A DNA stretch of 64,000 bases from Myxococcales bacterium (lineage in GTDB: Bacteria > Myxococcota_A > Polyangia > Fen-1088), in NCBI GenBank assembly GCA_022184915.1, contig JAGTJU010000004.1, positions 416,057-480,056 of the forward strand, given 5' to 3'. This document shows positions 38,216-52,761 of this stretch, one piece after another. Each line of letters begins with the position of its first letter. Position 1 is the stretch's first letter. Below the pieces are notes generated by a model, which made no database searches, had not been told where the DNA came from, and saw only the letters and a program-made list of their open reading frames with translations. A program made the position numbers and the translations under genes.

Positions 38216-40309
38216 ATGGTCACCATGCCCCCATCCCCCGCTTGGTTCTCCAGCACCCGCGCCACCTTCGTCGGCGCCGCCACTGAATCCGTGGTCGCCC
38301 AGCTCGCCTCGGGCGCCACGCGCGAAGGCTGGCTCGTAGAGCCCGAGCAGCACGACGAGTGGACCTCCAGCGTTGAAGCCCTCAAGCACGAGCTTGCGGC
38401 CGACGCCTGGCCCGCCGAGGGCCAGCAGGGTGGGGCGGCAAAGGCCGAGACCGTCGACACGCTGAGGGCGGCGTTGGCCCAAGCCGGCCTCGAGAGCTTT
38501 CGCCATGTGATTCTCGAGTACAACATGCGGCGCCGCGGTCTGCGTGTGGATTGCGTGCTGCTGGGGGAGGGCATCATCGCCGTGATCGAGTTCAAGCGCA
38601 GCCGCCCCAGCGCCGCCGATCGCGACCAGGTGATGAACTACGCTGTGAACCTGTGCGAGTTCCACGCCGAGACCCAGCGCGCGCTGGACCAAGGCGCCAT
38701 CCTGGTGCCCATCGTCGTGGCCACCCAGCAAGACACGCCGCTGCGCCTCGGCCAAGCGTTTCACGCCGCCCCGTGGAGCCGGGTGCTACAAGCGCCCCTC
38801 GAGGGCAGCGCCCGTGACCTTGCCCAAGCCTTGCGCCACGCCCTCGCGCTGCGGCCCAGTTCGGCCACCCCCGTGACCATCGACCGCGACACCTGGCTCG
38901 CTGCAAAGTTCTCGCCCTCATCAACCATCCTCGACGCCGCCATCTCGCTCTACGGCGCCCACGATGTTTCCGCCATCTCCGAACACGCCGCCCCCATCGA
39001 GGTGCTGGAGGCCTGTGCTACCGAAGCCATGGCCCAGATCGAAGACGCCCTGCAAACCGGCCAGCGGCGCATCGTGTTCGTCTCGGGCGCGCCCGGCGCA
39101 GGCAAGACCCTTGTGGGGCTCAAGCTGGCCTTCAGCGCCCAGCTTCGCGAGCAGTCTGTGTTCGTCACCGGCAACGCCCCCCTCGTCGATGTGCTTTGCC
39201 ACGCCCTGCAGGGCTCGTACAAGCGGGCCTCGCGTCGCGCTGGCATCAGCGGCTATGCCAAGGAGCAGGCCCGGCACGTGCTGGGCAACGCCACCTTCAA
39301 GATCGTCAAAGCCCACAACTACCTGGGCGACCGCGGCCGTCACCTCGACACCGCCCAAGAGCGCGTGGTCATCTTCGACGAAGCCCAGCGCACCTACGAG
39401 AAGGGCCGCACCGTGCTTCGTCAGCGCCTGGCCAACCACGAAGCCGACCTGATCCTCGAAAGCCTGGAACAATCGTTTCCTGGCGGCACCGTCGTGGTCG
39501 CCTTGCTGGGACACAACCAAGCCATCAACAGCGGCGAACGTGGCGCCGTGGCCTGGTTGGAAGCCGCCGCCCGTCGCCACTGGCAGTTCGCCATAGGCGA
39601 AGAAACTCTGGCCCTCACCGAACTGGCCTCCCACAGCCACCACGGAACCCATGCCCTTCGGCGCTCCTTGCAGCGCGGGCACCTGGCCCATTCTCTGCGC
39701 TACTACCGCAACGCCAGCGTCGAGAGGTGGGCCCACGCCGTGCTCGAAAACCAACCCACCACCGCCCGCAAGATTGCCGCCGAGCTCGATGCCCATGGCC
39801 ACACCGTGTATCTGACCCGCTCGCTGGCCCACGCCAAACGATGGGCCCAAGAACGGCGTGTGGGCGCCGAACGCGCCGGCGTCATCGCCTCGGCCCAGGG
39901 CCGGCGCCTATCCGCCGTGGGCATCCACGTGCAGTACAAGCCCGACATCTCCGACTGGATGCTCACACCCAGTGGCGACGTGCGGTCCTCGAACATGCTC
40001 GAGACCGCCCAGAACCAGTACCAGATCCAGGGGTTGGAACTGGACCACACCATCGTTTGCTGGGACCTGGACCTCCGCCGCAGCCCCCAGGGCTGGCAAG
40101 CGTTCAAGATGCAAGGCACCACCTGGAAATGCGACAAAGCCCAAGACATCGCCCGCAACGGCTACCTGGTGCTGCTGACCCGCGCCCGCAAGGGCATGAT
40201 CCTGGTTGTACCCGAAGGCGACGAGGGCGATCCCACGAGACCGCCCGGGGCGTACGGCGAGCTGGCGGCCTACCTGCGGGCTTGCGGGGCGGAGGAGGGC
40301 GGGCCATAG
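38216..40309 (+). CDS. NERD/PD-(D/E)xK nuclease-like N-domain fused to DUF2075-type SF1-helicase-like P-loop ATPase
   Basis: 697 aa. N-terminal FRHVILEYNM...RVDCVLLGEGIIAVIEFK (D...ExK). Walker A VSGAPGAGKT. Walker B VIFDEAQR. C-terminal GYLVLLTRARKGMILV (helicase motif VI-like). Confidence 0.7.
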   Translation: MVTMPPSPAWFSSTRATFVGAATESVVAQLASGATREGWLVEPEQHDEWTSSVEALKHELAADAWPAEGQQGGAAKAETVDTLRAALAQAGLESFRHVILEYNMRRRGLRVDCVLLGEGIIAVIEFKRSRPSAADRDQVMNYAVNLCEFHAETQRALDQGAILVPIVVATQQDTPLRLGQAFHAAPWSRVLQAPLEGSARDLAQALRHALALRPSSATPVTIDRDTWLAAKFSPSSTILDAAISLYGAHDVSAISEHAAPIEVLEACATEAMAQIEDALQTGQRRIVFVSGAPGAGKTLVGLKLAFSAQLREQSVFVTGNAPLVDVLCHALQGSYKRASRRAGISGYAKEQARHVLGNATFKIVKAHNYLGDRGRHLDTAQERVVIFDEAQRTYEKGRTVLRQRLANHEADLILESLEQSFPGGTVVVALLGHNQAINSGERGAVAWLEAAARRHWQFAIGEETLALTELASHSHHGTHALRRSLQRGHLAHSLRYYRNASVERWAHAVLENQPTTARKIAAELDAHGHTVYLTRSLAHAKRWAQERRVGAERAGVIASAQGRRLSAVGIHVQYKPDISDWMLTPSGDVRSSNMLETAQNQYQIQGLELDHTIVCWDLDLRRSPQGWQAFKMQGTTWKCDKAQDIARNGYLVLLTRARKGMILVVPEGDEGDPTRPPGAYGELAAYLRACGAEEGGP

Positions 40310-40583
40310 GCCCGTGCCGACGTCATCCCCAGTTGCCGCCGTCGATCGAGGACGGCGCGGCGTGATGGTTCTGGGCGGGAGACCTTCGGGTGCGATCACC
40401 AGCAACTTCCAGGCGACCCCAGCCGATATACTGGGTAAAGAAGGACCATGGCTGACGCCCTCGAGACATTCAACGCGCCCCCCGCCGGTGCCAAAGTTCC
40501 GACGGCGCGAGAGCTACGGGCTGCTGCAGCTCGAATGTACATGGAGCCGAGGAGCCATCGTGTACAGCTGATGAACCACATAG

Positions 40584-41390
40584 GTGAGCCCCTCGGAATT
40601 CCAGCGGGGGGCTGGATTAGTGGGGATTAGTGGTCAATCCCGCTTGATGCAGAACGGGGATGTGCGTGTGGTTTGGTTGCTGCGCCAGCTGTCCCGGTCT
40701 TCGACGGCGGAGGCAGCGTCCAGAAACCTCGCGCGGGCTGTGCAATTCGTAAACGCTGAGGTTATGTTAACCCTGATCACAGCCTCACGTGAATCGAGTT
40801 CGTCGATAGCCGCGACGTCTGACGAGCCAGTCAATACTTTCGCTCAAGGTGGCCTCGACTTTCTTGGGGGGGAGTATCACAGCCTAGGCCTTCCGCGCTC
40901 CGTCACAGCTTCCTGGGAATCACGGGCGCGCATACGAAATGCCGAGTCCGGGAACTTCATACAGCCCGCGAATATTCCGGCGAAGGATCAGGTGCTCGCG
41001 TACGCGGCGCAGATGAACGCCTCGTTCGACAGGAACTTTCTCAAATTCTTGAGAGCGATCTTGGGCGCTGCCGCGGGCGACGCTGTGACCAAGACGTCAC
41101 GCGCTGCCCTTCTGGTTTGGAAAGCTTTCGCGTTTCTTTCCCCTGCCGGAAAAGCATATGACCCCAAAAAAGGTCTCGACTCGCAGCTTAACATGCGGTT
41201 CGGAATCAGGACCTGCCTGGAGTACCTTCATGCGAAGGTGGATCAAGCTCTGCCTCTAGACCTCCTCCTTTCGCATCAGCCCTTGAACCGCAGCGAAAGG
41301 ATCCAGATCGCGAAGGCAAGAGTCGCGGAAGCTCTCTTCTTGGAGCGCGCACTTTCCACGACGCGCGACCTTCTGGAGCCATCCGTTTGA
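40584..41390 (+). CDS. hypothetical protein (lower-GC insert)
   Basis: 268-aa ORF. GC clearly below the neighbourhood. No family recognised. The start may be an internal Met. Confidence 0.35.
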   Translation: MSPSEFQRGAGLVGISGQSRLMQNGDVRVVWLLRQLSRSSTAEAASRNLARAVQFVNAEVMLTLITASRESSSSIAATSDEPVNTFAQGGLDFLGGEYHSLGLPRSVTASWESRARIRNAESGNFIQPANIPAKDQVLAYAAQMNASFDRNFLKFLRAILGAAAGDAVTKTSRAALLVWKAFAFLSPAGKAYDPKKGLDSQLNMRFGIRTCLEYLHAKVDQALPLDLLLSHQPLNRSERIQIAKARVAEALFLERALSTTRDLLEPSV

Positions 41391-41399
41391 GGGCGTAGC

Positions 41400-51415: not shown

Positions 51416-51657
51416 ACCGCCCGGGGCGTACGACGAAGTGGCGGCGTACCTACGGGCTTGCGGGCGGAGGAGGGCGGGCCATTGGCCCGTGCCGACGTCA
51501 TCCCCGGTTGACGACCTCGCAAATCATCACGGAGTCGTCTCCCGCCTGACCGCCCCCGTGGCGTCCGCACCACCCGCGGGAGGCGAACTCCGGTCCTCGC
51601 GAGCAGGCGCGCGAGGCGTGCGCACCGGTGCGCCGATGTCCTTGGGTGGGCTCTTCG

Positions 51658-52266
51658 TCACGCGAGCGCCTCGAGGTACGGCCGCATGAACGAATAGATG
51701 CGATCGGCGCGGGCGGCTTCGACGAGCGCATCGATGCTGCCCTTGTGCTTTCGTAGGTAGTCCTTGAGCGCGGCGAGCGCGACCTCGAGCCCGACGTGAC
51801 GGCGGAATCGAAAGCAGTCGGCGACGGTTTTCGCGGGCGTCGTGAGCAGCACCTTCACACCGTCGATGACGCGCGTCTCGACACCATGCTCCAGGGCCTT
51901 CTCGCTCGCGCGGACGACCTCGAGCGCCGGTGCGGTGACCTTGGGCATGCGTGCGTGCCGGTCGATGAGCACCCAGACAGCGTGTGGGACCTCAGTCGTC
52001 ATGCCGTGGGCCTGCAGCGCACTGAGCAGGCAGATGACCGCGTGCGGGACGCGCTTGCTCACCTCGGCAAGCGAGCTCTGCTCGGTCACCGGCGCGTCGG
52101 CGAGCCGGTAGAGCCCGCGGTCGATCTGCTCGAGCAGGCCGCGGTCGCAGAGCCGCTTGAGGTAGGCCCGCGGGATGGCGGCGGCGTCGAGGTCCCGAGC
52201 GCGCACCGGCCCCTTTCGAGCGAGGCGGAGGAGGGTCGTGGTCTTGTTCGCGGCGCCAGGTGGCAT
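51658..52266 (-). CDS. AbiEi-family antitoxin, second copy
   Basis: Protein identical to 43215..43823 except Q/L at one position. The downstream AbiEii is reduced to ~11 codons. Confidence 0.65.
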   Translation of the reverse strand: MPPGAANKTTTLLRLARKGPVRARDLDAAAIPRAYLKRLCDRGLLEQIDRGLYRLADAPVTEQSSLAEVSKRVPHAVICLLSALQAHGMTTEVPHAVWVLIDRHARMPKVTAPALEVVRASEKALEHGVETRVIDGVKVLLTTPAKTVADCFRFRRHVGLEVALAALKDYLRKHKGSIDALVEAARADRIYSFMRPYLEALA

Positions 52267-52761
52267 GATACGGAACGTCGTGCTCGAATATCGCGGACAG
52301 ACGATTCGTATCACACTTTGCCGCCGCCTTCAAGCTTTCGCCCCCCGCGTCTGCCCGTTAGGCTGGAATGGGCGGTGCGACAAGGCCCAGGCAGCTGGCT
52401 ATTGGGTCTTCGTCACTCCTGCCAGCGGAATCCAAATCGCACGCGACCAGGTCCGGGGTCAGCTTCATCTGCCACCTGCCCTTCGCCGGTTCCGTTGTCC
52501 GCTGCCGCGGTGCACTGTTCGGGGCGTCCACGGTGCACTTCTCGCCCTGCACAAGGAGGCTGAGCCCCCGCTCGAGCGTCATGGGCGGTCATCGCCAGAG
52601 CGGTACATGGCGATGGATTTCTCGTCGCCCGCCTCGAGAGTGATGGCTTCGCTGAACGTGGGCTCGACTCGGTTGCCGGTCGTATACGCGGCGCAGCATG
52701 AAGAATCGCCGCCTTCCCAGCCAACGCTCGGGGCCGCTTCGGCAATAGGAAGCGGTTAACC

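Follow-up and report, generated by a model that had tools for sequence, protein, structure and literature searches.

Two direct copies of a DUF2075/AbiE locus, probably old and diverged, in a variable defense region of a Myxococcales genome

Introduction

The described systems closest to the locus presented here are segmental duplications with interlocus gene conversion and pseudogenisation, the type IV toxin-antitoxin system AbiE (in intact operons the start of AbiEii overlaps the stop of AbiEi), insertion sequences (IS) of the IS66 family, which have the genes tnpA, tnpB and tnpC, inverted repeats and an 8-bp target duplication, and Nhi and Nhi-like proteins, described as anti-phage nuclease-helicases (Bari et al., 2022, as cited in bioRxiv 10.1101/2022.05.11.491447, PMC11232893). 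In this study we analyzed a stretch of 64,000 nucleotides from a Myxococcales bacterium (assembly GCA_022184915.1, contig JAGTJU010000004.1, positions 416,057 to 480,056), hereafter the window, in which a DUF2075 helicase gene and a convergent AbiE remnant are found twice. The source is a metagenome-assembled genome (MAG), and the proteins of the window correspond to its entries MCG5054663, MCG5054668, MCG5054675 and MCG5054677.

Like segmental duplications with conversion and pseudogenisation, the locus has collinear direct repeats with one decayed copy, a tract of identity that suggests conversion, and both IS elements and unrelated cassettes within the repeats and next to them. Unlike fresh duplicates, the copies do not lie head to tail, and the decayed copy appears to have been under purifying selection for long and to predate the split between two strains. 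With this long selection and this age, the locus looks like stacked old paralogues or alleles. It is more likely than not that the window contains two anciently diverged haplotypes of one DUF2075/convergent-AbiE locus, stacked directly in a variable defense region. This is ordinary defense-island plasticity and not a new kind of system.

Structure of the two copies

A repeat scan and a blastn search of the window against itself revealed three blocks that are present twice, in the same order and orientation and with a similarity far beyond chance. Block A (38915-39936 versus 50395-51414, 92.4% identity over 1,022 bp) comprises codons 234-574 of the DUF2075 gene of copy 1. Block A' (40238-40344 versus 51414-51519, 89.7%) corresponds to the 3' end of this gene and 35 bp downstream, and block B (43159-43940 versus 51604-52384, 97.2% over 783 bp) to codons 1-20 of AbiEii, the AbiEi gene and 69 bp upstream of it. 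A stretch of 301 bp of the DUF2075 gene (39937-40237), present in copy 1 and in a related strain, is deleted from copy 2 according to the alignments. A segment of 2,814 bp in copy 1 (40345-43158) has no counterpart in copy 2, which contains 84 bp at the same position (51520-51603). The related strain is represented by contigs L026 and L028-L030, which show a single locus, with flank genes 93-98% identical to those of the window. The two copies in the window are separated by an IS66 element and about 2.0 kb of unrelated DNA. Their direct repeats of about 1.0 kb and 0.8 kb are remaining substrates for further deletion or conversion.

A sequence-only reading of this DNA had described a segmental duplication close to these positions, and the self-comparison, a dot-plot type of check as it had proposed, bears this out with three collinear direct blocks. 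Its claim that 51590-52340 duplicates 43160-43900 with nearly identical AbiEi proteins agrees with block B, where 216 of 218 AbiEi residues are the same, and the nest of IS66 and IS3 elements with a low-GC stretch between the copies was found as described. Other parts needed adjustment. The repeated DUF2075 part, taken for the 3' end, spans codons 234-697, which is two-thirds of the gene including the Walker A motif. The region 50393-51415 is indeed a decayed copy with a deletion of about 300 bp, but it carries two 1-nt deletions instead of one, plus a stop codon. The unmatched segment and its filler, placed at 40330-43160 and given as 85 bp, both exist with the corrected borders and lengths given above; the segment has a lower GC content (0.57-0.64 versus 0.66-0.68), as was said, but holds more than two hypothetical genes. 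Finally, AbiEii remnants are present twice, but unequally, with a 104-codon open reading frame (ORF) inside the 2.8-kb segment of copy 1 but no more than about 20 codons left in copy 2.

Substitution pattern and age of the copies

The DUF2075 gene of copy 2 (50395-51519, + strand; blastn and base-level alignment) is a pseudogene. Codons 1-233 are gone and the sequence starts mid-gene at codon 234. It contains 1-nt deletions opposite 38990/1 and 39282, a stop codon opposite 39584 (CAG to TAG) and the 301-bp deletion. These lesions are typical of a pseudogene and would fit a recent in-situ segmental duplication of 38915-43940, in which copy 2 decays and loses 2.8 kb while IS elements and a low-GC cassette insert at the junction. 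The blocks are collinear, direct and only 6.5 kb apart, two copies with 90-97% identity are present as in a tandem duplication, and the lineage of copy 2 shows an excess of GC to AT changes (33 versus 19), with non-synonymous changes that outnumber those of either other lineage.

The pattern of substitutions argues against such a history. In a three-way comparison with the related strain over 38915-39936, 63 sites are private to copy 2, 22 to the relative and 12 to copy 1. The copy-2-specific changes comprise 40 synonymous and 23 non-synonymous ones (15/7/41 at the codon positions), whereas the neutral synonymous fraction is 0.257 (binomial p=3e-10), and the codon-position bias is still significant against an extreme GC-biased mutation model (p=8e-4). 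A copy that starts at codon 234 would be dead at birth and would drift neutrally, but synonymous changes account for 63% of the private substitutions of copy 2. This suggests that, since parting from copy 1, copy 2 has for the greater part of the time been under selection, presumably as a full-length gene. If the 63 changes are roughly divided between phases, about 40 would stem from the selected phase and about 23 from a later one of relaxed constraint.

Synonymous divergence (dS, Nei-Gojobori) points in the same direction. For DUF2075 it is 0.217 between the two copies (ratio of non-synonymous to synonymous divergence, dN/dS, 0.15) and 0.254 between copy 2 and the relative, versus 0.111 between copy 1 and the relative; the copies of one genome are thus about twice as distant from each other as copy 1 is from a different strain. 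The flank genes of window and relative differ by a dS of 0.09-0.20. The comparison therefore shows neither the neutral divergence nor an age younger than the strain split, as a recent tandem duplication would have, and suggests that the two copies separated at least as early as the window genome and the L026 strain. Blocks A and B differ four-fold in dS (0.217 versus 0.048). Moreover, the filler form is the sole form in the related strain, so the 2.8-kb difference predates the window genome. We found no head-to-tail junction, nor a junction due to a single mobile-element insertion. Simple duplication followed by decay, as the sequence-only reading had it, is not supported in view of the synonymous excess, the dS relative to the related strain and the junction, and a recent duplication is unlikely.

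Sequence between the copies

An IS66-family element lies between the copies (44029-48471, - strand; Pfam, terminal inverted repeats, target duplication). It resembles its family in the genes tnpA (48104-48412), tnpB (45930-46295) and tnpC (44177-45901), all on the - strand, with matches to PF03050 (E=1e-56) and PF05717 (E=6e-27). Its terminal inverted repeats (GTAAGCCCGTTACGCC, at 44029 and 48471) start with GTAAGCCCG (GTAAGC), and a perfect 8-bp target duplication (GGTGCTCT) is present at 44021-44028 and 48472-48479. This duplication indicates a clean IS66 insertion and ties both sides together. Unlike a plain IS66, the element is broken by a nested IS3-family element with orfA (47608-48087) and orfB (46535-47611), also on the - strand, for which inverted repeats were sought but could not be defined. 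A plasmid collection contained no match to the locus or to the IS66. A tRNA-Asn called by ARAGORN inside tnpB (93 nt, 46209-46301, - strand) has no Rfam support and is probably a false positive. In two sister samples (L036 and L037), the last 29 bp of the contigs, at window 48479/48480, are neither IS66 nor the pre-insertion sequence of the window, and what appears to be another element borders on precisely this position.

The IS66 is followed by an unrelated low-GC spacer (48480-50394) with three ORFs on the - strand, encoding 123 amino acids (aa), a GspG-like pseudopilin of 130 aa and 257 aa. When the IS66 and its target duplication are removed, 2,003 bp with 56% GC are left between the copies (43941-44028 plus 48480-50394). 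We found no IS ends, repeats or target duplication belonging to this 2,003-bp spacer, which is a further point against a recent duplication with a cassette inserted at its junction.

Support from independent assemblies

The two copies could also be an assembly artifact, in which haplotypes with the cassette form and the filler form were chained into one contig, for instance across a multi-copy IS66. The MAG origin of the window speaks for this, as does the presence of both sequence types together in other samples. In addition, contig L027 is a mosaic of copy 1, copy 2 and again copy 1 sequence that could be a de Bruijn path switch, and positions 43217-44028 have no independent support. Under a false join, on the other hand, the identical 8 bp on both sides of the IS66 would be met by chance in about 1 in 65,000 cases. 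The copy-1-specific segment and both of its junctions are reproduced at 100% by the Logan contig L119, which covers 39649-43216, and L027 matches the segment at 98.4%. In four independent Logan contigs, each from a different sample (L035-L038, 99.9-100% identical), copy 2 and the spacer are physically continuous, and all four run across the junction at 50395. Among them, L035 (100%) links the end of the IS66 through the spacer to copy 2 (48113-50433), while L038 (100%, another sample) covers 49041-50633 and passes the junction by 239 bp. Several contigs stop about 30-40 bp into the repeat, as expected of a k-mer assembler if both copies are present. Copy 2 furthermore begins mid-gene, for which a free-standing haplotype would have no need. 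Given the target duplication and the independent contigs, an artifact is very unlikely.

The copy-1-specific segment and the filler

The 2,814-bp segment of copy 1 is a patchwork of three unrelated pieces and not a single cassette. The first piece contains two hypothetical genes on the + strand. Gene hyp1 (40458-41390) is frameshifted by a 10-bp insertion at 40614-40623, is intact as a 310-aa ORF in L027 and L120, and gave no match in Pfam, NCBIfam or PADLOC. Gene hyp2 (41400-42386) is an intact ORF of 328 aa with an N-terminus that, by eye, is signal-peptide-like; it is a near-ORFan: apart from its own cluster, only one cluster of homologues was found in 5.8 billion proteins, and JGI metagenomes gave no relatives. 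The sole other hyp1-hyp2 pair (L120, 3095-5035; 85% and 68% amino-acid identity) follows the gene of a 640-aa SBBP beta-propeller protein and has neither DUF2075 nor AbiE beside it. Because the pair occurs elsewhere without these genes, it was probably inserted into copy 1 at some earlier time. Both genes may encode surface or secreted proteins, not defense genes.

The second piece is a DUF4411 (PIN-like) pseudogene (42461-42830, + strand) that matches PF14367 in two frames (E=4.7e-8 over profile positions 6-54 and E=3e-4 over 57-112), with a frameshift near 42650 and an end at profile position 112 of 159. It is convergent with the AbiEii fragment, and both are without their 3' ends, which points to one further deletion in copy 1. 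The right part of about 260 bp is ancestral AbiE operon sequence. Here, AbiEii codons 21-87, which are present in copy 1 and not in copy 2, are contiguous and in frame with the 20 shared codons, and the filler form is consequently a deletion derivative for that part. The deletion is old, since the related strain shares the filler form. The choice offered by the sequence-only reading, either deletion from copy 2 or insertion of the 2.8 kb into copy 1, was thus too simple: the AbiEii part stands as a deletion in the filler form, while the hyp1-hyp2 part is probably an insertion.

The 84-bp filler is 87.5% identical to the corresponding sequence of the related strain. A blastn-short search for its source against the window and all loci matched only this strain's own filler. 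The filler as the 3' end of AbiEii was ruled out, as tblastn with AbiEii relatives of 304 aa found nothing.

The related strain and exchange between the copies

In the related strain, the locus encodes an intact DUF2075 protein of 703 aa, followed by the filler and AbiEi. After AbiEi there are about 1.8 kb of strain-specific sequence (with a Tlde1-domain and DUF2195), and then the genes that flank copy 2 on the right (window 55006 on). The locus is therefore copy-2-like in structure and position, while its DUF2075 sequence is copy-1-like. We should note that L028 5013-6788 and window 52187-55005, where the window encodes a PG_binding_1 protein and hypothetical proteins, are completely different. 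The breakpoint between strain and window lies inside the AbiEi 5' end (window 43743/52186), and the shared flank is a sigma-factor. The genomes of GTDB species contained only DUF2075 homologues of about 50% identity, which are of no use for polarising the events. The comparison with related strains that the sequence-only reading had proposed for this purpose did date the filler deletion as old, but it comprises a single relative and no close outgroup. A third haplotype, L031 (window equivalents 43108-43350 and 51596-52734), has a copy-2-type AbiEi and right flank and keeps AbiEii past the breakpoint at 43159, with private substitutions.

In the AbiEi blocks, dS is 0.04-0.05 for all pairs (0.048 between copies 1 and 2). 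Within them a run of 368 bp (43414-43781) is fully identical between the copies (permutation P=2e-5). At four sites of this run the relative deviates from both copies. The DUF2075 blocks have an identical run of 101 bp (P=0.017). The 368-bp run suggests gene conversion between the AbiEi copies, by which they would have been homogenised. Contig L027 (1-1425, 98.4%, from a sister sample; window equivalents 38924-40344) is of the copy-1 type apart from positions 39082-39628, where it has a copy-2-type patch. This patch, of 547-656 bp, carries the 1-nt deletion and the stop codon, and represents either a conversion, which would have killed copy 1 in that strain, or a path switch of the assembler. 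As both switch points are located in identical stretches longer than 31 bp, the mosaic was set aside as proof of gene conversion.

The AbiE genes

Both AbiEi genes are intact and located on the - strand (43215-43871 in copy 1 and 51658-52314 in copy 2). They are clear members of their family, with an N-terminal winged helix-turn-helix and a C-terminal domain in both copies. Copy 1 matches PF13338 (E=1e-11) and the AbiEi model of PADLOC (E=2.5e-75), while PF17194 (E=1.6e-5) and PF09407 (E=3.5e-3) remain below their curated cut-offs. The likely start of AbiEi in copy 1 is Met17 at 43823, giving a protein of 202 aa to which P0001 (202 aa) is 100% identical. Exact look-ups of both 218-aa ORFs, of the 202-aa forms and of P0001 gave nothing on record.

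The AbiEii toxin gene is a 5' fragment in copy 1 (42904-43218, - strand), an ORF of 104 codons of which about 87 of 304 are homologous (PF08843, E=5.5e-9; PADLOC AbiEii, E=2e-33, positions 3-93 of 299; full-length relatives 304 aa). It begins with a GTG that overlaps the stop codon of AbiEi, an arrangement also seen in intact operons. Copy 2 retains only about 20 AbiEii codons downstream of AbiEi, with a 2-nt deletion. The genes thus differ from AbiE in the truncation of the toxin, since no full-length AbiEii (about 300 aa) is present downstream of AbiEi in either copy. As judged from the genes alone, neither copy is predicted to be a working AbiE system, and both would represent orphan AbiEi regulators or antitoxins. 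We also inspected 80 related AbiE loci, in 73 of which AbiEi was found, scored as a tblastn match. A truncated AbiEii beside the AbiEi match was seen in 13 of the 53 loci that could be scored, indicating that loss of the toxin next to AbiEi is recurrent.

The AbiEi genes of the window differ by eight synonymous and two non-synonymous changes (dN/dS about 0.09), despite the loss of the toxin. One explanation could be that AbiEi is a selected partner or regulator of the Nhi-like DUF2075 protein, or provides stand-alone immunity against incoming AbiE elements. If true, this would explain why, after loss of the toxin, AbiEi was kept in two copies that are under purifying selection and homogenised through conversion. 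The adjacent and convergent position of DUF2075 and AbiEi in both copies and in the related strain is consistent with such a role, as are the conservation of both AbiEi copies and the recurrence of truncated AbiEii elsewhere. However, DUF2075 is near AbiE in none of the 80 related AbiE loci, and an AbiEi-like gene is present at only one of 25 DUF2075 loci; these counts give no support for a conserved functional unit. DUF4411, hyp1 and hyp2 were likewise not found near AbiE in the 80 loci. The AbiEi gene of copy 2 is conserved beside a dead DUF2075 gene, so its upkeep does not depend on the helicase, and orphan antitoxins are common in general. A role of AbiEi as partner or as immunity gene is accordingly quite improbable.

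The DUF2075 protein of copy 1

Copy 1 encodes an intact 697-aa DUF2075 helicase of superfamily 1 (SF1) and of the SLFN-g3 type (38216-40309, + strand), which was identified by PF09848, PDC-S41, its motif and an AlphaFold2 model. PF09848 covers residues 284-666 (E=6e-52), and the PADLOC model PDC-S41 is matched over its full length (E=4e-161, positions 4-652 of 657). The Walker A motif GAPGAGKT is invariant in the DUF2075 homologues. For the N-terminal 230 residues, a Pfam search gave no match. In this part, residues E101, D112, E125 and K127 (E125-x-K127) are invariant in 30 homologues, and residues 72-169 have an alpha-beta-beta-beta-alpha-beta topology in the AlphaFold2 model (predicted local distance difference test, pLDDT, 80-96). 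A fold search with the model returned SF1/SF2 helicases, Dna2 among them, and a sequence search among solved structures found no match.

Based on the motif and the predicted fold, the N-terminal domain is predicted to be a PD-(D/E)xK-like nuclease. Together with the C-terminal DUF2075 SF1 helicase, it gives the protein an Nhi-like architecture. Unlike Nhi, the protein has nothing significant beyond the P-loop (E=4e-5) in common with the Nhi model of PADLOC. A literature search on PDC-S41 gave no paper. We consider the DUF2075 protein of copy 1 as one active candidate anti-phage helicase, predicted from its sequence.

Neighboring genes

Further defense candidates are located left of copy 1 (33991-37406), where an exonuclease matches a PADLOC CBASS-type 'Effector' (E=1.5e-35) and overlaps a PDC-M70A nucleotidyltransferase (E=1.3e-28), followed by an IS630-type (DDE_3) transposase. 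At the left side of the window, a tRNA-Arg and a tRNA-Lys (3382-3569) are adjoined by a tyrosine integrase (3578-5098, - strand), and the last 49 bp of the tRNA-Lys (3525-3573) are repeated with 98% identity at 9475-9523. The region 3382-9523 looks like an integrative element of about 6 kb with attL/attR-like repeats. Two adjacent paralogues of the MotA/ExbB family are found at 800-2146 (- strand), with about 77% DNA identity over 291 bp.

Discussion

The simplest history for the locus, with two old versions that have diverged and lie one behind the other in the same orientation, comprises the following events. Two functional DUF2075-AbiE versions would have come into direct orientation, with roughly even odds for the second version to be an old local duplication or a transfer from a related lineage. 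AbiEii was lost from both versions through different deletions, and the filler form presumably goes back to a deletion that removed AbiEii together with the sequence beyond it. Copy 2 would have been beheaded when the low-GC spacer was placed beside it, and would afterwards have acquired the frameshifts, the stop codon and the 301-bp deletion. IS66 inserted between the copies, and IS3 later inserted into IS66, and the AbiEi copies may have kept exchanging sequence. The single locus of the related strain is chimeric, as its gene body is like that of copy 1 and its filler like that of copy 2, followed by the right flank of copy 2. It would be explained best by a crossover of the two repeats within 39937-40237. 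A less simple alternative for this chimera would be the exchange of alleles in a recombining population.

Several observations weigh against this history. The source is a MAG, and positions 43217-44028 as well as the interior of copy 2 (50634-51595) are not covered by independent contigs from this strain. The window does not contain the left flank of the relative's locus, so that a collapse by crossover needs an extra rearrangement. The AbiEi block has no tree signal (five versus four informative sites), leaving the descent of the relative's AbiEi from copy 2 unconfirmed, and the likeness of relative and copy 2 in the 107-bp 3' block is weak (six versus three sites). One flank gene has a dS of 0.20, near the values of copy 2, and the divergence of the flanks is heterogeneous. 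Finally, with one related strain and no close outgroup, the order in which copy 2 branched first rests on a synonymous-rate clock.

The sequence-only reading had also seen a signature of repeated recombination in a defense region, and this view holds: two direct paralogous copies were reshaped by recombination, IS insertion and deletion events. The finding has little reach beyond the window genome, for which it represents a small and clean example of defense-region remodelling, with stacked diverged versions, loss of the toxin while the antitoxin was kept, nested IS elements and exchange between repeats. It also illustrates that a "duplicate plus decayed copy" can be tested from sequence alone, via the codon-position pattern of private substitutions. 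For the annotation of this genome, the AbiE calls in the window should be read as orphan antitoxins, and only the DUF2075 gene of copy 1 (PDC-S41, Nhi-like) should be counted as a candidate defense gene. The organism would then be expected to have no AbiE abortive-infection activity from this locus but two orphan AbiEi regulators.

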